A stretch of DNA of 64,000 nucleotides, from contig CAWFKU010000004.1 of the NCBI GenBank assembly GCA_963816485.1, positions 642,454 to 706,453 on the forward strand. The letters run 5' to 3'. Positions 28,976-64,000 of this stretch are shown here, one piece after another (within the stretch, counting starts at the first letter, position 1; each line of letters starts with the position of its first letter). The stretch is from an uncultured Actinomycetota bacterium (GTDB lineage Bacteria; Actinomycetota; Actinomycetes; Streptosporangiales; Streptosporangiaceae). The translations under genes and the position numbers were made by a program. The notes beneath the pieces are model-generated. The model was not told the DNA's origin. It did no database searches and saw only the letters and a program-made list of their open reading frames with translations.

Positions 28976-29072
28976 GCCGCCTTAGCTCAGTCGGCAGAGC
29001 GGTTCACTCGTAATGAACAGGTCGTCGGTTCTCGTAATGAACAGGTCGTCGGTTCGATTCCGACAGGCGGCT
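28976..29072 (+). tRNA. tRNA-Thr (anticodon CGT) gene carrying a 24-nt internal tandem duplication (97 nt instead of 73)
   Basis: GCCGCCT TA GCTC AGTCGGCA GAGC G GTTCA CTCGTAA TGAAC AGGTC GTCGG TT [CTCGTAATGAACAGGTCGTCGGTT] CGATT CCGAC AGGCGGC T. Removing either 24-nt copy gives a canonical cloverleaf. Confidence 0.85.
29007..29054 (+). repeat. Perfect 2 x 24-bp tandem duplication inside tRNA-Thr
   Basis: ctcgtaatgaacaggtcgtcggtt at 29007-29030 and again at 29031-29054. The unit starts at the same base as the att direct repeat. Confidence 0.95.
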
Positions 29073-29073
29073 C
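29031..29073 (+). repeat. attL core (3' 43 nt of tRNA-Thr)
   Basis: ctcgtaatgaacaggtcgtcggttcgattccgacaggcggctc is identical to 51614-51656. Confidence 0.85.
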
Positions 29074-29130
29074 ACATTAGTACTGGCCACAGGAATATTT
29101 CGTTGCTACTTTCGTCATTGATCATCTTCC

Positions 29131-51524: not shown

Positions 51525-51613
51525 GGAGTGCTCAACGGGTGCATCGTGTGCATTCTGTGCGTTCGGGCGTGCTATCTGTGCAGCTAGCGCGTCTGGTGCT
51601 GGCGGGCGTGTTT

Positions 51614-51656
51614 CTCGTAATGAACAGGTCGTCGGTTCGATTCCGACAGGCGGCTC
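51614..51656 (+). repeat. attR core: orphan copy of the 3' 43 nt of tRNA-Thr(CGT)
   Basis: ctcgtaatgaacaggtcgtcggttcgattccgacaggcggctc is identical to 29031-29073. No tRNA 5' half precedes it. Confidence 0.9.
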
Positions 51657-51713
51657 TCTTTCCCGCGGTTCAGTGATGTTTATCGATTTAAATTTCGACG
51701 GCTTGTCAATCTC

Positions 51714-52070: not shown

Positions 52071-52446
52071 ATGGTCGCCGCTGCAAGGCTGCTCATGGGC
52101 AGGCGCCCTCCCCGGATGGCGTCACGGAGTGTTGCGACGGGCTCAACACGTACGCGCAAGTACGGCTCTGATTGCGTGGGTGCAGGCGCTGCGGGTTCTC
52201 CCGTAACGGCAGAATCCACCTCGTTCCCTTCCGGGCACGCCGCGTCGGCGTTCGCGTTCGCTTACGCGGTTGGGCGGTACGTACCGGAGCTGGCCGTGCC
52301 GGTCAGGCTGCTGGCAAGCGGGGTCGCCTACTCTCAGGTCCACACGGGCGTGCATTTATCCGGGCGACGTGGTGATCGGCTCGGTTCTCGGCGCGGGAAC
52401 TGCGGCCATGGTCGCGGCGGCGTGCGATCGGATCCTGCCGGTTTAG
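52071..52446 (+). pseudogene. PAP2-superfamily phosphatase remnant (frameshifted, N-terminally truncated)
   Basis: RLLMGRRPP (K/RxxxxxxRP-like), SFPSGHAASAFAFAY, then SQVHTGVH followed by a shift. An extra T in catTtatcc is needed to read YPGDVVIGSVLGAGTAAMV. TM helices expected upstream are missing or out of frame. Confidence 0.5.
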
Positions 52447-52590
52447 CGAGAACCGGCCTGATCCTGCCATCCGGCCGGCCCACGGCTGCCCTTCAGCCCG
52501 AGCCAGAGGCGCAGGTTCTGCGGTCTTGGCAGGCGGTGATAGCCACTAAGGCTCGTGGAGCACGCTGGCGGATGTCGACGCGTGCGGCGG

Positions 52591-52857
52591 TCAAGTCGCT
52601 TCTGCCTGGTCGAGGTAGCTGGCGCCGTAGACGTGCTCGACGGTGATCTCCAGGACGACGCGGTTCATGGCGGCCAGGTCCGCGTCGCTCATCGGTTCGA
52701 CCGGCTGGCCGCCGATGCGCGACCACACGTACGCCGTGTCGGAGCCGATGTCGACCGCTGGCACAAGATCTGGGCGGGTCTGGGCATCCCGGAGGTGCAG
52801 GTTGCTGCCTTCGGCGTCGGCGGTGAGCTGCTGATCTGCGTGCGGAATAATCGGCAA
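52591..52857 (-). CDS. Hypothetical protein
   Basis: 88-aa ORF with protein-like composition (..IGSDTAYVWSRIGGQPVEPMSDADLAAMNRVVLEITVEHVYGASYLDQ). No family recognised. Confidence 0.35.
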   Translation of the reverse strand: MPIIPHADQQLTADAEGSNLHLRDAQTRPDLVPAVDIGSDTAYVWSRIGGQPVEPMSDADLAAMNRVVLEITVEHVYGASYLDQAEAT

Positions 52858-52925
52858 GACATGTCAGGGTCGCCGTCGGCCGAGTCGGCGGCGGCCATCC
52901 CGCGCCGTTCTTGGGGGAGGCTGCG

Positions 52926-53225
52926 ATGGAGGAGAACTTCATCTGGATGACAACACGCCGGATCAAGCCGGGCACGCTGGCTGACTTCAAGCGGACCTGG
53001 CGACCTGAGCGTCATCCCGACGGCATGCTGCACGCGTACGCACACTGGTCTGACGATGAGCAGGAGATCGTCGCCGTGTCGTCGTGGGCCTCCAGGGAGG
53101 CATGTGACAGATGGCGGGCATCGTGGGAGGAAACGCGGCGCCGGGCGGCGATGGATCCTTACGTTCTGAGCGAGCACGAGGGGTTTTACCATGGCCGCGA
53201 GCTGATCGTGTCAGCGGCGCCCTGA
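52926..53225 (+). CDS. Small ferredoxin-fold (ABM-like) protein
   Basis: ATG 52926 after GGGGGAGG. MEENFIWMTTRRIKPGTLADFKRTWRPERHPDGMLHAYAHWSDDEQEIVAVSSWASREACDRW. Confidence 0.55.
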   Translation: MEENFIWMTTRRIKPGTLADFKRTWRPERHPDGMLHAYAHWSDDEQEIVAVSSWASREACDRWRASWEETRRRAAMDPYVLSEHEGFYHGRELIVSAAP

Positions 53226-53279
53226 CCAGCCGGGGCCGAACGCCAGGTCACCCCTGCGAGTCCTCCGCCCAGGAACCAG

Positions 53280-53420
53280 TTACCGGGGCAACGGCTCGAG
53301 TTCGTCGATGACGACCATGACACCGTGTCCGAGCCAGGCCAGCCCCCGACGACCGCGTCGCGTTGCTCCCGGGTCCGCGTAGATCTTTCCGGCTGAAGTG
53401 GCTATGTTCTGGGCGCTCAT
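53280..53420 (-). pseudogene. C-terminal remnant of a BON-domain paralog
   Basis: ..RRGRRGLAWLGHGVMVVIDELEP.. parallels the C-terminus of the 55683-56336 gene (RDAVEAAAWLAQGVMVVINETEVTG). The shared DNA string is gatgacgaccatgac. Confidence 0.4.
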
Positions 53421-53653
53421 CCTTCGCCGTCGTCCTCAACCTTCCTGTGGTCGTGCTGCCTTCTTTGCAGAGCGCTAGGGCTGAGGCCGCCGCTGGCAAG
53501 ACCCCCGCCGAGGCGCAGCCAAGACTGGCGTTCGGCGTCCAAGAGGTCGCCGACGCCCTCGGCGTCAGCCGCGAACTCGTCAAGCAGCTCGGCCGCCGCC
53601 TCATCAGCCGCAAAGCCCTGGACCGCTTCCTCGCCGGCACCGACCACGCGTAA
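53363..53653 (+). CDS. Possible excisionase-type (MerR-like) HTH protein, degenerate
   Basis: The C-terminal part LAFGVQEVADALGVSRELVKQLGRRLISRKALDRFLAG resembles Xis-family HTH proteins. The only upstream start is TTG and the N-terminal half is not protein-like. Confidence 0.35.
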   Translation: MLPGPRRSFRLKWLCSGRSSFAVVLNLPVVVLPSLQSARAEAAAGKTPAEAQPRLAFGVQEVADALGVSRELVKQLGRRLISRKALDRFLAGTDHA

Positions 53654-53935
53654 CGCCGCCCAGCCCGCCGAGAAGCGCGGCAAAGCCTCCGAGTACCGCC
53701 AGCCTGCGAGAGCGATCATCTCCGCCGGTGCCCTACCTGAAGCCGCCTGCTCCGTGAGCTTGGCCTACACATGGCGTTTTCAGCGGTGCTTGATCTGCGC
53801 CGCTCTACGGCCAGCTCGGCGATCTCGGCCGACGACTGGTGCGACGTTCGCCAGCGTCCGCATGGAGAAGTCGGCGGCGCGCGTGCCGGGGTCCATGGCC
53901 ACGCTGGAAGGAGTGATGCGGCGAGCCATGCCAGA

Positions 53936-54616
53936 TCAGCCGGTGACTATCAGGTCATCACGAACGTTGCTGACGCCGACGCCCCTCCATGCAGCGTCGA
54001 TGACCGCGTCATGCTCGCCCAAGGTCTCGACATGGCCGCTGATAGTGACGGTGCTGTCGCTGGCGGCGACCTGCACGTCGGTGTCACCCGGTAGCACCCC
54101 GTAGCGGTCCAGGGCGCCTTGCACCAGATCGGTCACGTCAGCAGCCTGGATGTCTTTGAGGATCTCGATGTCGTCGCTGATGCCGCGGACGCCGGTCAGC
54201 CCCGCGACGGCCTGCTCGGCCGCGTCGCGCTCGAACCGGTTAGCCACCATGCCGGTCAGCCAGACATCTCCCTCGGTGACGCTGGCCTCGACGCTGGCAG
54301 GCACGCTGACGCTCATCTTCAGGGCCTTGTTCGCATCCGTCGCCAGAAGCACATCGTCCCGGAAATCGGCAAACGGCAGGTCAACCATCAGGTGGTTATG
54401 CACCCTGGTGACCCCTTGCACCCGCCTGGCCGCCGCAGCAGCGTGCAGGTACTGCGGGTAGCTGGGCACGGTGCCGTTCAGCGCCACATTCCCGCTCATG
54501 TTCTTCACGATTATGCGCGACGCGTCGACGAGCGGGTCGTAGTCGAGTTCCTTCCGGACAGCCTCGCGGACATCCTTGCTCCTGCGAGCTGCCTCGCGTG
54601 GGCTCTTTACCGCCAC
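53936..54616 (-). CDS. BON-domain protein (three BON repeats, OsmY-like, no signal peptide)
   Basis: GTG 54616 after GGAAGGGGGA. DVREAVRKELDYDPLVDASRIIVKNMSGNVALNGTVPSY...GVTRVHNHL; ...VWLTGMVANRFERDAAEQAVAGLTGVRGISDDIEI; ...VTISGHVETLGEHDAVIDAAWRGVGVSNVRDDLIVTG. Confidence 0.8.
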   Translation of the reverse strand: MAVKSPREAARRSKDVREAVRKELDYDPLVDASRIIVKNMSGNVALNGTVPSYPQYLHAAAAARRVQGVTRVHNHLMVDLPFADFRDDVLLATDANKALKMSVSVPASVEASVTEGDVWLTGMVANRFERDAAEQAVAGLTGVRGISDDIEILKDIQAADVTDLVQGALDRYGVLPGDTDVQVAASDSTVTISGHVETLGEHDAVIDAAWRGVGVSNVRDDLIVTG

Positions 54617-54967
54617 GGCTAGGTCCCCCTTCCCGCCAGCCGGCTGGTGCTCTCTGCTTATGTCCCTTGAACCTACCCACGGCCAGCAACCGCCAGTCGT
54701 CGCAATCATCGGCTTCTGGATGCCTGGTGGCCGTGGGCGCCGGATTCCAGCAGCAGGAGAATCGGCCAGCTATTTCGTAGCGGGCCTCCAGCCACGTGGA
54801 GGTGGTCAGCCGCCAGCACTCCTCAGCATCGCCGTGGTCAGCCCGGTCACCTGAAGGGGGCCTGTGGGCCGCGCGCCAACGGCGGGCGGCTGCTGAACGC
54901 AAGCGGGCCGCTCGCCGTGGACGCACGGCCCGCTTGCACGCCCGGCGCCGACAGGAAGCAGGCGAGC

Positions 54968-55384
54968 TCAGGCCGAGTTGAGCTGCTTGGCGTCCTGGCT
55001 GGTGATCTCGACCTCGCGCGGCTTCGCCGACTCGCGCACGGGGATCGACAGAGGCAGCACGCCGGTGGTGGTGTAGTCAGCACTCATGTGCTCGGGGTCG
55101 AGCGTTTCGCCGCGGAATACCTGCCGGGTGAACACGCCGGCTGGGCGCTCGGCGACGATCAGTTCTGGTCCGTCTGGCTGACTGCCGGCGCGCTCGGCGC
55201 GGATCGTCAGGACGCTCTGCTCGACGGTCAGGTCGATCGAGTCGAGCTGGATGCCGGGGAGATCAAGGTGAATGTAGAACGCGTCGCCCTGGCGGTATGC
55301 GTCCATCGGCATCGCCGCAGGCCTTGCCATCGTGCCGAGGACCTGCTGGGTGAGCCGGTCGAACTGGGCCACGAGCTTGCGCAT
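54968..55384 (-). CDS. Hsp20/alpha-crystallin family small heat-shock protein
   Basis: ATG 55384. MRKLVAQFDRLTQQVLGTMARPAAMPMDAYRQGDAFYIHLDLPGIQLDSIDLTVEQSVLTIRAER...VFTRQV.LGETLD...ADYTTGVLPLSIPV. Confidence 0.85.
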   Translation of the reverse strand: MRKLVAQFDRLTQQVLGTMARPAAMPMDAYRQGDAFYIHLDLPGIQLDSIDLTVEQSVLTIRAERAGSQPDGPELIVAERPAGVFTRQVFRGETLDPEHMSADYTTTGVLPLSIPVRESAKPREVEITSQDAKQLNSA

Positions 55385-55459
55385 CCGCTTCAATGCGATG
55401 GCGCTGGCATCCAGCGGCGGTCCCTCGACCAGGCGCCGTAGTGCCTGGTCCGCTCGCCT

Positions 55460-55576
55460 CACGTCAAACGCTGGCGGCCGCTGCCCGAGCAGGTAGTTCT
55501 CCGCCCAGTAGTTCCAGATCAGGTTCCCTGGGCGCAGCCAGGCGAACACCTCGGCCTCCTCTCGGGTGTACCGGCC
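55460..55576 (-). pseudogene. Fragment of a poly(3-hydroxyalkanoate) synthase (PhaC) gene
   Basis: GRYTREEAEVFAWLRPGNLIWNYWAENYLLGQRPPAFDV matches the conserved F..LRPNDLIWNYWVNNYLLG..PPAFD segment of PhaC. It is isolated, with no flanking PhaC sequence in frame. Confidence 0.55.
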
Positions 55577-55682
55577 TGGTTTCTCTTCCGCCGCAGGTGC
55601 CGAAGTGCTCCCAGCGGTCGGCCGAATCGGGGGCCCGCGACAGCTCGGGCCGGTCCAGATAACACATGACGTCGGCCATCGG

Positions 55683-56336
55683 TCAGCCAGTGACCTCGGT
55701 TTCGTTGATGACGACCATGACCCCCTGAGCCAGCCAGGCAGCCGCCTCGACGGCATCACGCTGCACGCGGGTCCGCACATGTCCGACCAGCACGACCTTG
55801 CCGCCGGTGACATTCGCGGTCACGTGAGTGTCGTCGGGAAGTACCTGGTGGCGGTCGAGCGCCTGCCTGACCAGCCGGTTGACGTCGGCCGGGTCCACCT
55901 CGAAGGTGAGCTCGACTTGGTCTTCAACGTTCCGCACCCCGGGTAGCCCGATCACGGCTGATTCGGCCGCAGCGCGCTGCCGCCGGTACTTGACCATGCC
56001 AGTCAGGCGCAGGTTTCCGTTCTTAGCGATCGCCTTGACCCGTTCGAGCCCAGCAGCGCTGGCCGCAAGGGCATTGTTCGCCTCCGTGGCCAGCCTGGCG
56101 TCATCGCGCTGATTCTCCTGCGGCAGCGCGACCTCCAGGTGATTGCGCACGCTGGTGACCCCGGCGATGCGCCAGGCCGCGTGTACGGCTTCGAGGTATT
56201 GCGGGTAGCTGGGTACGGTCCCGTTAAGCGACACGTCTCCGCTGATCGTCAGGACGGTGATGCCGTCGGCGTCGATAACCGGGTCGTCGGCTAGCTCTGC
56301 TTCCACTGCCTCGCGGACCTCTTTGGTCTTGGGCAT
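55683..56336 (-). CDS. BON-domain protein (three BON repeats)
   Basis: ATG 56336 after GGAAGGGAG. MPKTKEVREAVEAELADDPVIDADGITVLTISGDVSLNGTVPSYPQYLEA...GVTSVRNHL...LRLTGMVKYRRQRAAAESAVIGLPGVRNVEDQVEL...VVLVGHVRTRVQRDAVEAAAW. Confidence 0.8.
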   Translation of the reverse strand: MPKTKEVREAVEAELADDPVIDADGITVLTISGDVSLNGTVPSYPQYLEAVHAAWRIAGVTSVRNHLEVALPQENQRDDARLATEANNALAASAAGLERVKAIAKNGNLRLTGMVKYRRQRAAAESAVIGLPGVRNVEDQVELTFEVDPADVNRLVRQALDRHQVLPDDTHVTANVTGGKVVLVGHVRTRVQRDAVEAAAWLAQGVMVVINETEVTG

Positions 56337-56430
56337 GCCTAGTCTCCCTTCCGGCTGCGACGTGGCTGCCTGCTGATTTCCTTCCCAGTTGCCTACGTCA
56401 GACATCAGGATCTATTGGAGCCGAGGTTCG

Positions 56431-56772
56431 TCAATGCAGGACTGGGACGGCGAGGTAGACGGCGGCGATGACGAAGGCGACCAGCGCAGGCGCTGCCTCT
56501 TTGATCCGGTCGCCGGCCCGCCGGTGGCTGACCAGCGCGCCGATTAGGAGCAGGACCATGCCGCTAGCGGCAGCCAGGCCCAGAACGTGCCACAACAGGC
56601 CAGCCAGGACGCCGGCCGCAGCGGCCAGTTCGGCCACGCCGATGAGCTGGTAGCTCCGCCACGAGATGCCGAAGTGCGCAGCGGCCTGCCGCATCCTCGG
56701 CAGCCCAAGGACCTTGGACAATCCGGGCACCAGGCAGACCGCGGCCAGGAGCACTGAGAGCGCGACGTACAT
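56431..56772 (-). CDS. DoxX-family membrane protein
   Basis: 113 aa with four helices. LSKVLGLPRMRQAAAHFGISWRSYQLIGVAELAAAAGVL...VSHRRAGD. Confidence 0.65.
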   Translation of the reverse strand: MYVALSVLLAAVCLVPGLSKVLGLPRMRQAAAHFGISWRSYQLIGVAELAAAAGVLAGLLWHVLGLAAASGMVLLLIGALVSHRRAGDRIKEAAPALVAFVIAAVYLAVPVLH

Positions 56773-56859
56773 GGGATCCTCCTTCGCTTAAGGCCGTTGA
56801 ACGGCAGCCGGCCGAGAGTCCCAGCGCCACGCCGCGGCCCGTCCGGCGACTTGCTGACG

Positions 56860-56888
56860 AACTTATCATGACTGTGATGGATTATCAA
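56860..56888 (-). promoter_or_regulatory. Candidate sigma70-type promoter for the doxX-BON-hsp20 transcription unit, inside a 140-bp AT-rich patch
   Basis: Minus strand reads TTGATA (56888-56883), 17 nt, TAAGTT (56865-56860), about 90 nt upstream of doxX ATG 56772. Duplicated TGACGAAC and GATGGGAG words occur nearby. Confidence 0.3.
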
Positions 56889-57314
56889 TCTCGATGGGAG
56901 ACTTCATCAGGGTCTTCTGTGTCCGGGCATCAGATGGGAGCTACGTCGTTCTGTGACGAACAATCAATACTGATGATATTCGCTATGCTGGCTCATGTGA
57001 GTCGGCCCTGGCGGTCGGGGCGAGGGGAGAATGATGATGGGCGCGGCAGGAGCGGCCGAAGTACCCTCGGTACGGCCGCCGCGCCGCGGGATGCGGCCCA
57101 CGCTGGACAGCGGCCAGCTCGGGATCGTCATTGTCGGCCCGCCCAGCGCTCCGCCCCCGCACGGCAGGTATGCATTTCGGGATCCGCCAGGCAGCGCTGC
57201 GGGACCGTTCCCCGGCGGCAGCTGAGCGCGGCGCGGCTTGGTCCGCCCATCCCGCCGCGGCGCTAGGCCGTCCGGCCTGGTCCGGGATCCGTCCCGGACC
57301 GGCTAGCCAAGCCT

Positions 57315-57848
57315 TCAGGACCGTTGCGCGTGCCGCACCTCGAAACCGACGACGATGTCGGAGATGCCGCGGAACAGGGCGAAGAACCGGACCCAGAAGA
57401 TGAGCAGGGCTGCTCTGGTCGGAAAGGCCTGCTGCGATGCCCAGAATCCGATGATGATCTCAGCGATTCCGGCAAGCAGGCCGAGCCACCAGGCTGGGTT
57501 GATCGTCCTGGCGTTGATGGACATCACCAGGTCCAGGCTGCCGCGCAGGATGAGCAGCAGCCCGACGATGGTGGCGAGCGCCCAGAACGCGTTGTACGGG
57601 TGGACGAAGGCCCAGATGGCTGCGCCGATGAACAGGACGCTCATCAGGATGTGCAGCCAGCCCCAGCTGGCCCGGGCCGATGCCAGCACAATCTCGCTTA
57701 CAGACGCGATCAGGAACACCGCGCCGATCAGCACCCCGATGGTGGTGATCGAGGTGGTGCTGAACCGCAGCACCGCAGCCGAAATGATCAGCCAAGCGAC
57801 GCCGGTCGCCAGCAGGATCCACCACGGCCCGCCGAGCTCCCTGAGCAT
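57315..57848 (-). CDS. HdeD/DUF308 family membrane protein
   Basis: MLRELGGPWWILLATGVAWLIISAAVLRF... has six helices with the repeated W..(L/I)..G(I/V)..(I/L)..G pattern. An alternative start is at 57932. Confidence 0.65.
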   Translation of the reverse strand: MLRELGGPWWILLATGVAWLIISAAVLRFSTTSITTIGVLIGAVFLIASVSEIVLASARASWGWLHILMSVLFIGAAIWAFVHPYNAFWALATIVGLLLILRGSLDLVMSINARTINPAWWLGLLAGIAEIIIGFWASQQAFPTRAALLIFWVRFFALFRGISDIVVGFEVRHAQRS

Positions 57849-57964
57849 GGCACGACGGCGTTCCTGCGGCTGAGCTGGAGTAGTCGTTTGCGTGCGGTAG
57901 TCATTGCACGCTCTCTTCAGCGGACCCGGCATTTCAGCCGGGTCGGTCGGATGCGGCGGGGCCG

Positions 57965-58651
57965 TCAGCCGGTGATCACCAGGTCATCGCGGACGGCGGT
58001 GACGCCGAGCCCGGCCCAGGCGGCCTGGATCACCGCGTCGTGCTCGGCCCAGTCCACGACGTGCCCGGTGAGCGTGATGGTGCCGTCGCTGGCGTTGACC
58101 ATGACGTCGCTGTCGTCAGGGAGCAGCGAGTACCGGTCGAGCGCGTCCTGGACCAGGAACGAAACGTCTTCGGCTTCGACGTCGCTGAAGATCTCGATGT
58201 CGTTGGTGATGCCGCGTACGCCGGTGAGCCCGGCGACCGCCTGGCCGGCGGCGTCGCGCTCGAACCCGTTCCGCACCGTGCCGGTGATCCAGATGTTGCC
58301 TTCGTAGGAACTGGCCTCGACGGTGGCCGGCACACTGACGGTCTGGGCCAGGATGTTGTTCGCCGCCGTGGTCAGCTGCGGGTCGTCGCGGTAGCTGGCG
58401 GGCGGAAGGGCCACCGCCAGGTGGTTATGCACTCGGGTGACGCCCTTGACGCGCTTGGCGGCGTCGGCTGCGTGCAGGTACTGCACGTAGCTCGGCACGG
58501 TGCCGTTCAGCGCCACGTCCCCGTTCATGTTCTTCACCCTGATACCGGCCGCATCGACCAGCGGGTCGAAGTCCAGCTCCTTCACCACGGCCGCGCGGAT
58601 GTCCTTGGCGGCCTGGACCTTTTCCCGGATCGGGTCCTTCTTCGGTGCCAT
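57965..58651 (-). CDS. BON-domain protein (three BON repeats)
   Basis: ATG 58651 after GGGAGGGGGA. MAPKKDPIREKVQAAKDIRAAVVKELDFDPLVDAAGIRVKNMNGDVALNGTVPSY...GVTRVHNHL...IWITGTVRNGFERDAAGQAVAGLTGVRGITNDIEI...ITLTGHVVDWAEHDAVIQAAWAGLGVTAVRDDLVITG. Confidence 0.8.
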   Translation of the reverse strand: MAPKKDPIREKVQAAKDIRAAVVKELDFDPLVDAAGIRVKNMNGDVALNGTVPSYVQYLHAADAAKRVKGVTRVHNHLAVALPPASYRDDPQLTTAANNILAQTVSVPATVEASSYEGNIWITGTVRNGFERDAAGQAVAGLTGVRGITNDIEIFSDVEAEDVSFLVQDALDRYSLLPDDSDVMVNASDGTITLTGHVVDWAEHDAVIQAAWAGLGVTAVRDDLVITG

Positions 58652-58859
58652 CGCGGGTCCCCCTCCCAGCCAGCACGAATAGCCATCATTGCGGCTGTAC
58701 CCCCGTCGGCCGCTCCCTAGACGGACAGCCGGCCTCCTTCTGGCAGGGCCGCCGGGGCCGCCCCGAGCAGTCGCCAGAACACGGCGGCGGCGTACGTCGC
58801 CGGGCAGCAAGGACGAGCAAGATCATTCGAGGCTGTTGGTGGCACCATTCCGCCGTCCG

Positions 58860-59123
58860 AAGATGATCCCGACCCGTCGTGTGATGCGCGTTGTATCGGA
58901 GAACCCATGGATGCGGTCGAGCACGGCCAGTCGTTCACGGTGACCAGGGACGGGTACCCGATCGCGGAGTTGATCCGTTGCGGCGGCGGCGAAGGCTGGT
59001 TCCGCGGCGGGAGTTCGTCGTTATGTCGCGTCGCGTAATGCTCCTGGCATGGACCCGGAGGCGTTCCGGGCAGACCAGCAGGCCGCGCTCGACGACGAGG
59101 CCAGCAGCCGGTATGACCGTTGA
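58860..59123 (+). pseudogene. Phd/YefM-type antitoxin (vapB-like) remnant, multiple frameshifts
   Basis: The pieces MDAVEHGQSFTVTRDGYPIAELI and PGMDPEAFRADQQAALDDEASSRYDR lie in different frames. The end overlaps the PIN gene ATG by 11 nt. Confidence 0.45.
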
Positions 59124-59489
59124 GAGGCTGCGGCAGAGTCTGCTCGATACCAACATCGTGATCTTGCGCAAGTGGTTCGATCCGGGTGAGTTGCCCGCGG
59201 AGATGGCGAGCAGGACGCCTACGACGAGCATGCCGAGCGGGCGCGGCGCTTGGAGATCTTGCAGCGGGCCGAGAGCGAGTTCGAGCCGGTGCCGTTCGAC
59301 GCCGAGGCGGCTCGCCTGTTCGGCCGGGCGACCGCTGCGATCGGGCGCAAGCCGCGCCGGCGGGTCGCGGGCTTGATGATCGCTGCAACCGCGATGGCCG
59401 AGGGCCTGCCAGGACTTCTGGTGACCACCAGCCAGGACAACGCCCGGCCGTCCACCCGGACTTATCCGACTGGCAGCCGGTCGTCGTAG
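59113..59489 (+). pseudogene. PIN-domain toxin (vapC-like), frameshifted near 59210-59250
   Basis: MTVERLRQSLLDTNIVILRKWFDPGELPAEMA (frame 1), then EILQRAESEFEPVPFDAEAARLFGRATAAIGRKPRRRVAGLMIAATAMAEGLPGLLVTTSQD (ORF 59250..59489). Confidence 0.55.
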
Positions 59490-59628
59490 TTGAGCACCAC
59501 CGTCCCAGGAAACCCGGCCAGGGCGCGCTGATCGGCTCCGCCTGGGCTGAATGCCGGGCTTGCCATGATCGACGACCGTCAGGGCGTGATCGGTTGGTTG
59601 GCGCGGGCCTGTCAGGAGGCCGACAACA

Positions 59629-59796
59629 GCGGAAGCGGAGCCGCTTGGGATCCCATCTGCGGGCCTGCCCGTGCGGGGCCAGCATGGCCGTCCAGGCGAG
59701 CAGGTCGCAGGCCAGGACGACGATCTCGGTCCAGATCTGGTTCTGAGCGAAGCCTTCGTGGAAGCGGCGAGAGCCCTCTCGTGCTCGCTGACGCAC
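59629..59796 (-). pseudogene. C-terminal fragment of an IS1380-like transposase
   Basis: FHEGFAQNQIWTEIVVLACDLLAWTAMLAPHGQARRWDPKRLRFR matches the conserved ..NaaW..l..lA.NLlaW...L.......ePKrLRyR tail of IS1380-family transposases. No catalytic domain is present. Confidence 0.5.
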
Positions 59797-59876
59797 CGGC
59801 TACTGGGTGCGCATGAGGCGGCAACGACTCAGCCTGGCGGAAGGTCAGCGTAACTTATCGTCCGTCTCGGGTGCGG

Positions 59877-59906
59877 TTTACATTAAGGTCGCCAAACCCC
59901 TATAAT
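59877..59906 (+). promoter_or_regulatory. Near-consensus sigma70 promoter upstream of the AI-2E transporter gene
   Basis: TTTACA (59877-59882), 18 nt, TATAAT (59901-59906) in a low-GC patch, about 60 nt upstream of ATG 59969. Confidence 0.4.
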
Positions 59907-59968
59907 GCGCAATTCGCTTCGAACGGGACGTGGGTGGCACGCAATAAGGCGCCTGCGCGCTGCTCAAC

Positions 59969-61528
59969 ATGCTTTGCGATCATGGAAACATGGACAAGGA
60001 TAGGCGGCCAGCCTCCCGCTCGGAGAGGTTCTGGGCTGGCGCCAATGTCAAGGGTATTCCCCTGCAGGCAATCGTAGCTACGGTGGCAGTCGTCGCCGCA
60101 ACATACCTGGCCGGAAAGCTGCTCTACCGGCTGCGCGATGTTGTCTTGCTGCTACTACTTGCAGGCTTTTTTGCGGTGCTCTTGAACCCTCTTGTCACTG
60201 GTCTGCAACACCGGGGAGTCCGGCGCCGTGGTGCCGCGGTCTTTGTCGTGACAGTGCTGGCGGTGCTGGTGTTTGGTGGCCTCGCAACTGCGTTCGGTTA
60301 TCCACTCTCCCGCGGGATCGCTCACCTAGCGCACGCCATGCCCGGGTATGTCGCTCAGGCTAAGAGCGGCCGGGGCTGGATTGGTCATCTCGTACGCCAG
60401 TACCACCTGGCAGGCTGGGTCAGCCGCAATGAGTCAAAATTTGTTAAATTCGGCCAGGACCTGGCGAGGCCGGCGCTGACTGTAGGCAAGGGCGCCGTAT
60501 CGCTGCTGGCGGCGCTGGCGACACTCGTCGTGCTTGTCGTGCTCTTGCTCCTGGACGGGCCCGCGCTGGTGCAAGGGATACTGAACGCGATGTCGCCCGC
60601 GCACGCCGAAAGGTTCTCCCGAATTGCCGGCGAGGCCAGCCGCGCGGCCACCGGCTACATGGCCGGTAACGGCCTGACGTCGCTGATCGCTGGCATCGTT
60701 GTGTTCGTCACGCTGTTCATCCTGGGCGTGCCTTTCCCGTTTTTGTGGGGACTTTGGGTGGCACTCATCGATTTCGTACCGCAGGTCGGCGGCGCGCTCG
60801 CAGGAATACCGACAGTGCTGTTCGCGGCAGCCCACTCGCTGACGGCCGGAATCGTCACTGCAGTGGTTTTTGCGGTCTATACCCAGATCGAGAACCATGT
60901 GCTCAATCCCGTTGTCATGAGCAAGACGGTCCGAGTCAGCCCGCTGTTTGTCCTCGTCTCGGTGCTGGTCGGGGCGTCCATCGGGGACTGGCTGGGCGGA
61001 GTCGTCGGCGCTGTCGTGGCGGCTCTGCTCGCGGTCCCGACCGCCGCGGCGCTTCAGACGGTCCTACGGGAGCTATGGCGGGAAACCGCACCCGAGAGAT
61101 CATCGCCTTCCGGCAACGGCAAGTTACCCGTATGCACCTGCCGGGCCGCGGATCTGGTCCTTCCATCCGCGACTGGGCCGACTCATCTCCAGCGCCAGCC
61201 CGATCTCGAAGGGACGGTAGGCAACCGGTTCCAGCGCGACGCAGCTGAGCAGGCCATAGCCGTGCTACCGGGGGTGCGAGGCATCGTCGACGACATCGAG
61301 ATCTTCAGCGACATCGAGGCGGCCGACGTCACCGACCTGGTGCAAGGCGCTCTCGATCGCTACGGGGTGCTTCCGTTTGACAACGACGTCGCGGTGCAGG
61401 CCGGCGACGGCACCATCACTCTTACCGGCAGCGTGGGCAGCTGGGGCGAGCATGACGCGGTGATCGACGCGGCCTGGCGGGGCATCGGCGTCAGAAATGT
61501 CCGCGATGACCTGGTAGTTACCGGTTGA
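59969..61528 (+). CDS. AI-2E family transporter (PerM-like) whose ORF runs in-frame into a BON-domain gene remnant (chimeric C-terminus)
   Basis: The transporter part reads FAVLLNPLV..., LIDFVPQVGGALAGIP, YTQIENHVLNPVVMSK. From about 61200 the ORF reads GTVGNRFQRDAAEQAIAVLPGVRGIVDDIEIFSDIEAADVTDLVQGALDRYGVLPFDNDVAVQAGDGTITLTGSVGSWGEHDAVIDAAWRGIGVRNVRDDLVVTG. This is close to the C-terminal 1.3 BON repeats of the 53936-54616 gene, but on the opposite strand. Confidence 0.7.
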   Translation: MLCDHGNMDKDRRPASRSERFWAGANVKGIPLQAIVATVAVVAATYLAGKLLYRLRDVVLLLLLAGFFAVLLNPLVTGLQHRGVRRRGAAVFVVTVLAVLVFGGLATAFGYPLSRGIAHLAHAMPGYVAQAKSGRGWIGHLVRQYHLAGWVSRNESKFVKFGQDLARPALTVGKGAVSLLAALATLVVLVVLLLLDGPALVQGILNAMSPAHAERFSRIAGEASRAATGYMAGNGLTSLIAGIVVFVTLFILGVPFPFLWGLWVALIDFVPQVGGALAGIPTVLFAAAHSLTAGIVTAVVFAVYTQIENHVLNPVVMSKTVRVSPLFVLVSVLVGASIGDWLGGVVGAVVAALLAVPTAAALQTVLRELWRETAPERSSPSGNGKLPVCTCRAADLVLPSATGPTHLQRQPDLEGTVGNRFQRDAAEQAIAVLPGVRGIVDDIEIFSDIEAADVTDLVQGALDRYGVLPFDNDVAVQAGDGTITLTGSVGSWGEHDAVIDAAWRGIGVRNVRDDLVVTG

Positions 61529-61529
61529 C

Positions 61530-61756
61530 CCAACCGATCGCCCGCGCCCTCCTGGGTGTGACTGGTCTGCCGCCTGCCCGGCGTCGCTGGCCGGGTCCGC
61601 TTGGAGGCTTTGCGCTGCCCTGAGCTGTTCGACGCGGGCCGTGATCTGCTGGCTGGTTTCCCGGCTCGCTTGTTCCACGGACTCTTTGAGCTCATTGACC
61701 TGGCGCTGCAATGCGTCGATGTGCTGGCGAACTGCCTGCGGCTCGCGAACGCTCAT
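61530..61756 (-). CDS. Possible small coiled-coil protein (only the N-terminal part of ORF 61265..61756 looks genuine)
   Basis: MSVREPQAVRQHIDALQRQVNELKESVEQASRETSQQITARVEQLRAAQSLQ. The remainder of the ORF is antisense to the BON remnant and Arg/Gly-rich. Confidence 0.3.
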
Positions 61757-61957
61757 GTTCCCCCCTGACTCGCGCCAGCCTGCCTGCTTCTCTACGGCTT
61801 GCAGTCAGGCGCTTGCACTGTCACCGTAACAAGGCCCACTCCGGACCAGCCAGAGCGGCAGGTCACGCCGATCATCTGACCGATGGATGACCTGGTGCTG
61901 CGGTGCCGGGTCACTGGCACAGCCACAGGTTTCGGCGGCGATCAGGGCACCTTTCCA

Positions 61958-63142
61958 TCAGCGATCTGACTGGCCTGGGCTGACTTCTCCCGAGCCGTCA
62001 GACCCGGATCCCGCCCGTCTGTGAGCAGCTCTCGCGTACTGGCGGCGGTAGAGCAGGTAAGCGGGCAAGCCCGAGACAAGTGGTAGCCAGTAGGACGCGA
62101 GCCGGTATGCGAGGGTGGCCAGGACGGCGTTGGCGGGGTGCACGCCGGCCAGGATGAGCAGGCTGCTCAGGCCCGCCTCGACGATGCCGAGCCCGCCCGG
62201 GGTGATCGGCACGAGGGCGAGAATGCCTGCGGCGGCGTACGCCAGCAGTACCAGTGCGGGCTGGGGCGAGCTGGTGGTCGCGTGCAGCGCCGCCAGCAGG
62301 CAGCCGTAGTCGAAGGCCAGCCGCCCGGTGGTCAGTAGCAGCGCCTTCCGCCAGTGCTCGCCGAGTACCGTGCGGACGGCGTCGCGGTCGGCCAGAAGCC
62401 GCTGATCCAGGCCGGTGACCGGATGCCGGCCGAGGGTCAGCCAGTTCCACACCTTCTGCCCGACCCGTCCGGCTGTGGCCAGCGGCCGATCCGTCGTGAG
62501 CACAAGTGCGCCAAGGCCGGCGAAGAGAACGAAACCTGCCAGTCCGATGAGCGCTGCATGGGCCAGACCCGGGCTCACCCGAATTCCGGCGATCATCGCC
62601 GGCGCGGCGAACAGCGGCAGCCCCAGCAGCGCGGCGACTCCGATAAACGAGATTGCTGCCAGCCCGCTGAGGGCGGTGTCGGTGTCGAATCCGGCGGTGG
62701 AGAGCATCCGGAACTGAACGCCGGCACCTATCGCGCTGCCGCCCGGCAGGCTGTTAGTGACCGAGTTGCCCGCCAGGCCGGCCGTGACGACGGCGAACCA
62801 GCCTTTCGCTCGCAGTGCCAGCCGCTGCAGCCCGAAGTTACAGGTGAAGGACGCAACCTCCGCGGCCAGCGCGACGGTGAACCAGATGGGATCCAGGGTG
62901 GTCAGACGCGGCCAGGCACTCAGCACCTTCGTTATCGCCGGGAAGAGCACGTAGATCGCGGCGCCGGCGACAGCTAGCGGGATGGCGCGTTTCAGCAGCG
63001 CCCGCCAGGTCGGCGGGTGCTTCCGCGCCGCGTCGATCGCGGCGGTCTTCTTCTGGATCGCTGACTCCCGGCCGCCGGCTGACCTTGCGGCAGCTGACGG
63101 GGCGTCATGCCCGGCTGAAAGTTTGTGATCCAAGATAGCCAC
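61958..63142 (-). CDS. UPF0104 / lysylphosphatidylglycerol-synthase-TM-region family membrane protein (flippase-like)
   Basis: Polytopic. LAGNSVTNSLPGGSAIGAGVQFRML and ALVPITPGGLGIVEAGL are the family signature. Confidence 0.7.
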   Translation of the reverse strand: MAILDHKLSAGHDAPSAAARSAGGRESAIQKKTAAIDAARKHPPTWRALLKRAIPLAVAGAAIYVLFPAITKVLSAWPRLTTLDPIWFTVALAAEVASFTCNFGLQRLALRAKGWFAVVTAGLAGNSVTNSLPGGSAIGAGVQFRMLSTAGFDTDTALSGLAAISFIGVAALLGLPLFAAPAMIAGIRVSPGLAHAALIGLAGFVLFAGLGALVLTTDRPLATAGRVGQKVWNWLTLGRHPVTGLDQRLLADRDAVRTVLGEHWRKALLLTTGRLAFDYGCLLAALHATTSSPQPALVLLAYAAAGILALVPITPGGLGIVEAGLSSLLILAGVHPANAVLATLAYRLASYWLPLVSGLPAYLLYRRQYARAAHRRAGSGSDGSGEVSPGQSDR

Positions 63143-63796: not shown

Positions 63797-64000
63797 TTAG
63801 GTCAGCTTGATCACCTTCGGGGAGGGGGTTTCCCGGCTGGGCACAGAAGTCGCGGCGGCAGAGAGGGTCCACGGCAGGCGCGGCAGTCGGGGCGCGGTCG
63901 CCACGTCGGCGATGACCCGGTCTGGCCGCACGAGGACGGCCAGCCCAGGGTCGCGGATCAGGGCCTGCAGCGCCGCTGCCTCGTGGCCGCGTGGCGGGCT
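63797..64000 (-). CDS. C-terminal end of an oxidoreductase-like gene entering from the right edge (FAD-monooxygenase-type tail suspected)
   Basis: The minus frame reads ..PPRGHEAAALQALIRDPGLAVLVRPDRVIADVATAPRLPRLPWTLSAAATSVPSRETPSPKVIKLT* with TAA at 63799-63797. The LVRPD motif resembles the tail of aromatic-ring hydroxylases. Partial, so a weak call. Confidence 0.3.
   Translation of the reverse strand, partial: SPPRGHEAAALQALIRDPGLAVLVRPDRVIADVATAPRLPRLPWTLSAAATSVPSRETPSPKVIKLT

Follow-up and report, generated by a model that had tools for sequence, protein, structure and literature searches.

A triple-BON and membrane-protein gene module, present in two diverged copies within a tRNA-Thr att array of an actinomycete, is probably accessory cargo

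The window analyzed here is a 64,000-nt stretch (C4:642454-706453 of genome G000, 6.5 Mb) of high-GC actinomycete DNA, whose closest public relatives are Trebonia-like Streptosporangiales metagenome-assembled genomes from soil and peat and the cultured Trebonia kvetii. Toward its right end, three genes encode proteins consisting of three BON domains each, and these genes are interleaved with others for an Hsp20 protein and several membrane proteins. As a whole, this locus is best explained as accessory island cargo in a decayed stack of integrated elements, comprising a conserved module of BON and membrane proteins in two copies; we hold this explanation with slightly more confidence than doubt. 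In what follows, positions without a contig prefix are those of the window.

Results

Three intact triple-BON genes of separate descent

The three genes BON1 (53936-54616), BON2 (55683-56336) and BON3 (57965-58651), all on the minus strand, are intact and encode proteins of 226, 217 and 228 amino acids, respectively. Each protein contains three BON stretches (Pfam PF04972; E 1e-31 to 4e-35), with profile scores of 109-120 bits against a gathering cut-off of 27; that is, all three belong to the BON family. Their pairwise identity is 47-66%. The purine-rich ribosome-binding sites of the three genes, read from the sequence, are GGGAAGGGGGA, GGAAGGGAGA and GGGAGGGGGA. None of the proteins has a hydrophobic N-terminus (maximum KD19 hydrophobicity over the first 45 residues no greater than 1.03) or a transmembrane (TM)-like segment, and no lipobox or signal sequence is found in the N-termini (MAVKSPREAARR..., MPKTKEVREA... 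and MAPKKDPIRE...). Because a signal peptide is absent and the host is monoderm, we take BON1-3 to be cytoplasmic. The proteins are acidic (pI 4.65-5.28, net charge -7 to -13), and none has a Pfam match to LysM. An initial annotation of this DNA had described three triple-BON genes of ~220 codons with such ribosome-binding sites and no signal peptide, interleaved with hsp20, doxX and an HdeD-like gene and followed by AI-2E and UPF0104 genes; the Pfam, sequence and hydrophobicity analyses bear out this description.

The AlphaFold (AF2) model of the triple-BON protein, built from 38 sequences, consists of three alpha-beta-beta-alpha-beta units (pLDDT 85.9, pTM 0.76). Its best matches in the PDB, by sequence as well as by fold, are OsmY, DolP (YraP) and BonA (8rjx, 7a2d and 6v4v, respectively), with which it shares the tandem BON fold; the next fold matches are three-domain type III secretion ring proteins, at low TM-score. 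However, OsmY, DolP and BonA are two-domain proteins with a signal peptide or lipobox that act in the periplasm or on the outer membrane, whereas the proteins described here have three domains, neither kind of signal, and a monoderm host, which places them in the cytoplasm. BON1-3 thus have neither the Sec signal peptide with two BON domains of an OsmY-like periplasmic protein nor the lipobox and outer-membrane anchor of a DolP- or BonA-like lipoprotein. What they do have is the 'three x BON' architecture, at ~220 residues, of cluster 3 in Table 1 of Bryant et al. 2020 (690 proteins, 25 of them from Actinobacteria; PMC7806268). That cluster has the same architecture and size class, but it is a database grouping without an assigned function or a link to AI-2E, DUF308, UPF0104 or DoxX. 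A database search gives 4,129 relatives of the triple-BON proteins at E <= 1e-5, none of which bears a name other than 'OsmY'. The cultured T. kvetii 15TR583 has triple-BON genes at NZ_RPFW01000005.1:195592-196269 and NZ_RPFW01000001.1:699308-699946.

In a maximum-likelihood tree of 87 BON sequences, BON2 groups at 99% with BON2 of G010, a ten-contig genome of the same genus, within a 100%-supported clade of six; BON3 falls in a 99%-supported clade with sequences from G009, G007 and G010; and BON1 belongs to a third group. According to this phylogeny, BON1, BON2 and BON3 are three old paralog lineages, with orthologues of each in other genomes. The repeated paralog duplication in situ that the initial annotation had proposed is therefore not upheld.

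Two diverged copies of one module

From position 59894 to ~12 kb beyond the end of the window (C4:702347-718359), the DNA is collinear with C3:329509-352622 of G010, which served as the BLASTN reference, at 86-91% identity and with two deletions. To the left of this block lies another, at 52844-58702, whose kinds of genes, namely ABM, BON1, BON2, DoxX, DUF308 and BON3, are the same as those of the right block. The left and right blocks are 77.6-83.8% identical at the nucleotide level, and the left block and G010 are 74-87% identical; the blocks are two diverged copies of one module, lying side by side. Because the left-right identity of 78-84% is lower than the 86-91% between the right copy and G010, the two copies diverged before G000 and G010 split. 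On these identities, the left copy stems from either an old duplication or a second acquisition, rather than from a recent duplication in situ.

The first gene of the right copy (59969-61528, plus strand) encodes an AI-2E permease whose reading frame runs on into the last ~105 codons of a BON1-type gene. Pfam recognizes AI-2E_transport (PF01594; 166 bits, profile positions 14-323 of 327) and two BON stretches, and the segment 61211-61528 is 79% complementary to the 3' end of BON1 (repeat I1). This chimeric open reading frame (ORF) is a deletion product, since G010 keeps the tandem AI-2E -> BON pair: a deletion of ~0.7 kb took the AI-2E stop codon, the intergenic DNA with its promoter-like motif (see below) and the ~118 first codons of the next BON gene, with ~70 nt of filler in their place and the frame kept open; the junction lies within 60.9-61.3 kb. 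We found no natural AI-2E-BON fusion among candidates of suitable length in 5.8e9 database proteins, and in the tree the fused BON tail groups at 100% with the AI-2E-adjacent BON proteins of G010 and G007, apart from BON1. As judged from these comparisons, the BON tail is a lineage-specific deletion product. Of the two BON remnants that the initial annotation had listed, 53280-53420 and 61125-61528, both are matched, but the second, rather than an inverted stray remnant, is the part of the AI-2E -> BON pair that this deletion spared. The eight TM-like segments and basic N-terminus of the AI-2E protein would place its C-terminus, together with the fused BON tail, in the cytoplasm.

The second deletion in the right copy took out a BON2-type gene and the ABM gene, along with the 3' part of a BON3-type gene. 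A promoter-proximal stub at C4:713836-713997, outside the window and beside the second DUF308 gene, is a sixth BON remnant. All three BON genes of the right copy are broken or lost, and the one intact member of each BON lineage that the genome retains is in every case in the left copy. Deletions in the right copy have wrecked or removed its three BON genes, one of them fusing AI-2E to two BON domains, and the left copy has lost a TetR gene and spacer DNA and gained a 5'-truncated hsp20 along with permease and PhaC debris. The recombination suggested in the initial annotation is thus upheld, in that scars of recombination and deletion are real, as the comparison with G010 demonstrates.

The remnants are many: besides the three BON genes that are broken or gone and the truncated hsp20, there are pieces of permease, PhaC, PIN and transposase genes, as well as spacer deletions. 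On that account, one might regard the whole as decaying island cargo without present function. However, exactly one intact gene survives per BON lineage, with its ribosome-binding site and promoter-like motifs conserved. The dN/dS ratios of the intact BON genes, 0.18-0.29 (0.18-0.24 for BON1), point to purifying selection, and the GC content at third codon positions (GC3) of the intact genes is 0.81-0.88. We consider such a loss of function very improbable.

The left copy begins with the gene for an ABM-like small protein (52911-53225, plus strand; PF03992, E 1.7e-4, below the cut-off), which is 87.5% identical in nucleotide sequence to G010 344114-344495, where it adjoins BON2. The BON2-type 3' remnant at 53280-53420 (minus strand; repeat family D9) is 82% identical over 45 nt (53295-53339) to the 3' end of BON2 (55695-55739) and is convergent with the ABM gene, an arrangement shared by the intact BON2 of G010. 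DoxX_2 (56431-56772, minus strand; Pfam E 4e-18) has 4 TM-like segments, and its gene has a second copy at C4:710809-711159 that is 77.6% identical in nucleotide sequence; with doxX lying 98 nt upstream, BON2 is probably co-transcribed with it. The HdeD-like DUF308 membrane protein (57315-57932, minus strand; Pfam E 2e-11) is encoded 33 nt downstream of BON3, forming a BON3-DUF308 operon, and the same pairing is found in G010. Between doxX and the DUF308 gene, a deletion-scarred spacer (56773-57314, minus strand) holds the remnant of a 254-aa ORF (tblastn) and a 26-nt element. Compared with its counterpart in G010, this spacer is shorter by ~1.5 kb; there, as in the right copy, the interval is filled by a TetR gene, lost from the left copy, and another ORF. 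The 26-nt element (56949-56974), upstream of doxX, is identical to G010 C3:340643-340668, with flanks that are ~76-80% identical, and it overlaps the twice-occurring word GTTCGTCA. It may be the operator of the lost TetR gene.

Recurrent neighbors and promoter-like motifs

The surroundings of triple-BON genes were compared in a sample of 49 related BON loci from 42 isolates, with at least 4.5 kb on both sides of each; GC3-supported ORFs within ~5 kb of the BON gene were clustered, and representatives were scanned with Pfam. DUF308 (two types) was the most frequent neighbor, at 26 loci, followed by AI-2E (13), LPG_synthase_TM (12), LysR (9), DoxX (8), a second BON gene (8), TetR (7) and the lipid kinase DAGK_cat (6), while Hsp20 occurred at none; the loci derive from related organisms, so these counts overstate their independence. 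At least one of four membrane families (DUF308, AI-2E, LPG_synthase_TM and DoxX) is found at 34 of the 49 loci, and the 6.5-Mb genome has only ~2-4 copies of each. These membrane partners have 4-8 TM-like segments. AI-2E and BON genes lie on the same strand, 1-108 nt apart, in either order and in several separate BON clades. Lipid enzymes are also among the BON neighbors, namely the UPF0104 flippase-like protein, a diacylglycerol (DAG)-kinase-like protein and a PAP2 fragment.

A role of BON1-3 as cytoplasmic binders or sensors of K+ or another cation, like Kbp of E. coli, and tied to ion transport by AI-2E and an APC/K_trans-like permease, should be weighed against these neighborhoods. Kbp (YgaU) is, like BON1-3, a cytoplasmic BON protein, and it is cited in PMC7806268 as binding K+. 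It is among the PDB matches of the triple-BON protein; BON1-3 are very acidic; and an intact 751-aa permease of this type, with a partial K_trans match, is encoded in the same segment of the array, 18 kb rightward, as well as in 5 related loci. However, those five are only 5 of the 49, so that the permease is a minor neighbor, and Kbp combines one BON domain with a LysM domain, which BON1-3 lack. The match to Kbp is moreover weak, at E 0.44 by sequence and E 0.014 by fold. We thus judge cation sensing of the Kbp kind improbable.

Upstream of BON1, the promoter-like motif GACTG-N15-GGGTA (54674-54698, minus strand) attains the top position weight matrix (PWM) score of the genome, 22.4, and GTCTA-N15-GGGTA is read from the sequence upstream of BON3 (58698-58722, minus strand). 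The general form G(A/T)CT(A/G)-N15-GGGTA occurs in 45 of 83 distinct BON upstream regions, 45-75 nt before the start and in variable surroundings; a similar regular expression matches ~1% of random 300-nt pieces. BON2, which follows doxX, lacks the motif, and none was found upstream of AI-2E, LPG_synthase_TM, DUF308, DoxX, ABM or Hsp20. The AI-2E gene is instead preceded by a strong sigma-70-like promoter, TTTACA-18-TATAAT (59877-59906, plus strand), matching at 11 of 12 positions. In actinobacterial promoters of the SigB/SigF type, GGGTA(C/T) is the -10 element and GTTT the -35 consensus. The corresponding consensus GTTT-N14-19-GGGTA, also tried, has one match in the window, which is the chance level.

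Distant BON clades (55-62% identity; loci L048, L050, L052, L056, L059, L063, L066 and L076) have no GGGTA. They share the upstream word (G)TGGACT(G/A), followed 11-18 nt on by a (G)TAATCC- or GTAC-like sequence.

A truncated hsp20 among debris

Between BON1 and BON2 lies hsp20 (54968-55390, minus strand), contained in the longer ORF 54968-55813(-). Its alpha-crystallin domain is intact (PF00011, E 1e-13; 51.4 bits, profile positions 4-102 of 102). The nearest orthologues, which are 68-72% identical and whose contigs have no relation to BON genes, begin to align only at ...QFDRLTQQ, query residue 18-19, and the DNA upstream is debris in the same frame. From this we conclude that hsp20 has lost its own N-terminus and promoter, both being replaced; i.e., the gene has the alpha-crystallin domain without the native N-terminal arm. 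The debris (55391-55682, minus strand) is an N-terminal fragment of an APC/K_trans-like permease, matching the 751-aa permease at BLASTP E 2e-10, and encloses a PhaC fragment of 34 aa (~55460-55576). This PhaC fragment, already recognized in the initial annotation, is confirmed by its match to PDB PhaC 5hz2 at E 3.3e-6; the PhaC_N profile, which does not cover the region of the fragment, has zero matches genome-wide.

The pairing of BON and Hsp20 raises the question of a DosR/lxa-like regulon for hypoxia or dormancy, in which both would be co-induced when respiration stops. In the strain-specific lxa locus of Burkholderia cenocepacia J2315, the products most strongly induced at low oxygen include an Hsp20 and a BON protein of 23.5 kDa (PMC3721108, PMC6127331), with an induction of more than 200-fold (PMC3721108). 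This locus also holds storage-polymer genes (PMC3721108, PMC6127331), i.e., polyhydroxybutyrate (PHB) genes, with which the PhaC fragment could be compared. However, lxa is rich in universal stress proteins (USPs) and has an FNR/FixK-type box, whereas here USPs are absent, hsp20 is a truncated passenger that none of the 49 related loci contains, the motif is a different one, and PhaC is only a short fragment. The segment contains no USP, no nitroreductase and no DosR-type regulator or DosR/FNR-type site, and the likeness between the lxa gene BCAM0280 and the triple-BON proteins is one of description, not of sequence comparison. Moreover, the genome has a classical dormancy-like locus at another site, C1:63-74 kb (L103:5547-16114), with a nitroreductase, two CBS-CBS-BON proteins, a thioredoxin, P-type ATPases (one with hemerythrin), an AMIN-like protein, Hsp20 and a PNPOx-like protein. 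A regulon of the DosR/lxa kind is thus unlikely to account for the cluster. The osmotic, acid or dormancy-type stress reading of the initial annotation is weakened likewise, because it leaned on an Hsp20 that is truncated, fused to debris and absent from the related loci.

The att array and the question of an island

The cluster lies in an array of att repeats headed by a tRNA-Thr(CGT) gene (28976-29078, plus strand; repeat family D7). This tRNA has the anticodon loop CTCGTAA and contains att copy 1 and a 24-nt tandem duplication; either the tRNA is broken or the assembly is in error here. The duplication unit, CTCGTAATGAACAGGTCGTCGGTT, is present twice, and ARAGORN miscalls the gene as a 98-nt 'His(atg)'. 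The assembly has no other Thr(CGT) tRNA; its remaining Thr tRNAs are only tgt and two ggt. Att copy 2 (51612-51661, plus strand), consisting of the 3' half of the tRNA and flanked by P and P' arms with GTGGAACGnnTCGTGGAACG repeats, marks the left edge of the segment that holds the cluster. The repeats 29029-29078 and 51612-51661 are 96% identical, which confirms the att repeat that had been annotated initially.

Over 94 kb (C4:671497-765152), a 30-nt core occurs seven times in direct orientation. Copies 2-7 have a left arm of 150-250 nt in common, and their right arms are common within two groups; both arms hold direct repeats of the GTGGAACGnnTCGTGGAACG type. The att copies are P-O-P' junctions that separate related elements stacked one after another. 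The BON cluster is in the second segment (25.6 kb, between copies 2 and 3), so that direct att repeats, at C4:694080 and C4:719680, lie on both sides of it, as in a tRNA-integrated island. The 10 kb to the left of the tRNA are syntenic in five of five genus genomes, whereas the right flank of the array shows no synteny in five relatives and maps to other contigs or far off. Triple-BON homologues were found in 8 of the 24 genus genomes searched, several long-contig genomes having none, and the gene order of the BON loci varies among relatives. Among close relatives, the distribution is thus patchy.

A number of observations weigh against an island. The array contains no tyrosine integrase (PF00589) between C4:671 kb and 766 kb; the composition of the block is not deviant (GC 0.63-0.69, versus 0.66-0.75 nearby); and in G010, which has a six-copy array, the orthologous block lies 14 kb past the last recognizable junction, with no arm-type repeat for ~150 kb beyond the block. 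These same points, along with the wide occurrence of the BON family in the wider Trebonia-like group, favor an old chromosomal locus beside the hotspot that was never mobile, the att copies stemming from elements that landed on either side. However, the block is here bracketed by two complete P-O-P' junctions, its homologues are restricted and variably ordered among relatives, and five relatives show synteny on the left flank of the array but not on the right. An immobile chromosomal locus is therefore a contender that we regard as doubtful. We read the block as accessory cargo of a hypervariable tRNA hotspot, and at most as a possible mobile unit in its own right. Of the horizontal acquisition suggested by the initial annotation, the accessory character and the two att junctions stand, and movement as a unit does not follow.

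Tandem genomic islands, and actinomycete integrative and conjugative elements (AICEs) of the pSAM2 type, at tRNA 3' ends have comparable junctions: the 3' half of the tRNA recurs in direct orientation, and the arms beside the core are conserved and carry short direct repeats of their own. They differ from the present array, which has no integrase, excisionase, replication or transfer gene over 94 kb.

The arm repeat also marks a second array in G000, at C3:18-97 kb, and a possible eighth junction at C4:777717; arrays similar to the tRNA-Thr array are present in G010 and G017. Farther along the array, C4:742332-742884 and G010 C3:322526-323078 share 553 bp at 97.6% identity, the surrounding DNA being 80-90% identical; this near-identical stretch may be a recently exchanged or mobile piece. 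At C4:744258-751737, a run of repeats with a period of ~165 nt matches G010 C3:320428-321285 and contains repeat-protein genes as in the first island segment.

Other features of the locus

To the left of the left copy is a fragment of a PAP2 lipid phosphatase (52071-52646, plus strand; PF01569, 33.7 bits, profile positions 23-102 of 130), in which the stretch 52210-52456 is 94% identical to G010, inverted. Three features that had been noted as element debris are seen as weak matches, all of them below the Pfam cut-offs: an excisionase-type helix-turn-helix (HTH) in a short ORF (53363-53653, plus strand; HTH_17, E 8e-4), antitoxin/PIN-like remnants of the vapBC type (58891-59489, plus strand; PIN E 0.063, otherwise by eye) and the C-terminal tail of an IS1380-type DDE transposase (59600-59796, minus strand; PF13701, E 0.0013, profile positions 351-394 of 435). 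Pseudogenes that rest on a single frameshift could be assembly errors. Rfam, applied to 50-64 kb of the window, gave nothing beyond one sub-threshold miRNA match.

In the right copy, the AI-2E::BON chimera is followed by a small coiled-coil ORF (61532-61756, minus strand), which has no Pfam family above the cut-off and is kept in relatives (75% by tblastn in L023; also L015 and L027), and by the UPF0104/LPG_synthase_TM membrane protein (61958-63142, minus strand; Pfam E 9e-25), whose gene is 89% identical to that of G010. The right copy runs on beyond the window, which ends within the 3' end of a gene for a 609-aa FAD monooxygenase (63797-64000, minus strand). With an FAA hydrolase and a glyoxalase/dioxygenase-fold protein, this enzyme makes up an aromatic-catabolism trio in the BON-bearing segment (63797-64000 and L090:1-3741) that is collinear with G010.

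Discussion

The locus consists wholly of known, uncharacterized families and is no new kind of system, and in the literature collection searched we found no publication that pairs 'BON domain' with AI-2E or with SigF. The most economical reading of its function, which we advance tentatively, is that of a cytoplasmic, membrane-facing protective or regulatory module that acts under envelope stress. Because this combination of genes is found again in related bacteria of acid soils, the cluster is probably a membrane-stress module, and in this sense we infer that it is stress-responsive. The BON proteins would act at the cytoplasmic face of the membrane, binding lipid head groups, the cytoplasmic parts of the co-encoded membrane proteins, or both; such binding would stabilize or regulate these membrane proteins under acid, osmotic or drying stress. 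Most of the BON genes, here BON1 and BON3, would use a G(A/T)CT-N16-GGGTA promoter of their own. In DolP, BON domains do bind anionic phospholipid (PMC7806268).

Several of our results count against this membrane-stress module. The strong acidity of BON1-3 is no evident fit for the binding of anionic lipids. The promoter-like motif shows no genome-wide excess over reversed-sequence controls (12 versus 11 matches, or 37 versus 35 with the PWM) and is therefore not a regulon signature. Its -10 half resembles that of SigB/SigF-type promoters, but its -35 half is not GTTT. Finally, the sampled loci in which the gene combination recurs are kin.

A more specific proposal, which we consider rather unlikely, is that the triple-BON proteins are dedicated soluble partner subunits of polytopic membrane proteins, chiefly the AI-2E permeases and DUF308/HdeD-like proteins, docking at the cytoplasmic face so as to gate or stabilize them. 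Along with UPF0104, DoxX and lipid kinases or phosphatases, the triple-BON proteins would then constitute a hitherto undescribed system for protecting the membrane in acid-soil actinomycetes. If this were true, the accidental AI-2E::BON fusion would be a natural 'Rosetta stone' for a contact between BON and AI-2E.

Whereas BON proteins are almost always discussed as periplasmic envelope proteins of Gram-negative bacteria, the proteins described here belong to a large family without signal peptides in a monoderm host. The locus is also a worked example of a tRNA hotspot that accumulates related elements, in which the redundancy that followed a second copy was resolved gene by gene. The recurrent combination of genes thus provides a testable lead to the function of five families, namely triple-BON, AI-2E, DUF308, UPF0104 and DoxX, in actinomycetes of acid soil and peat.

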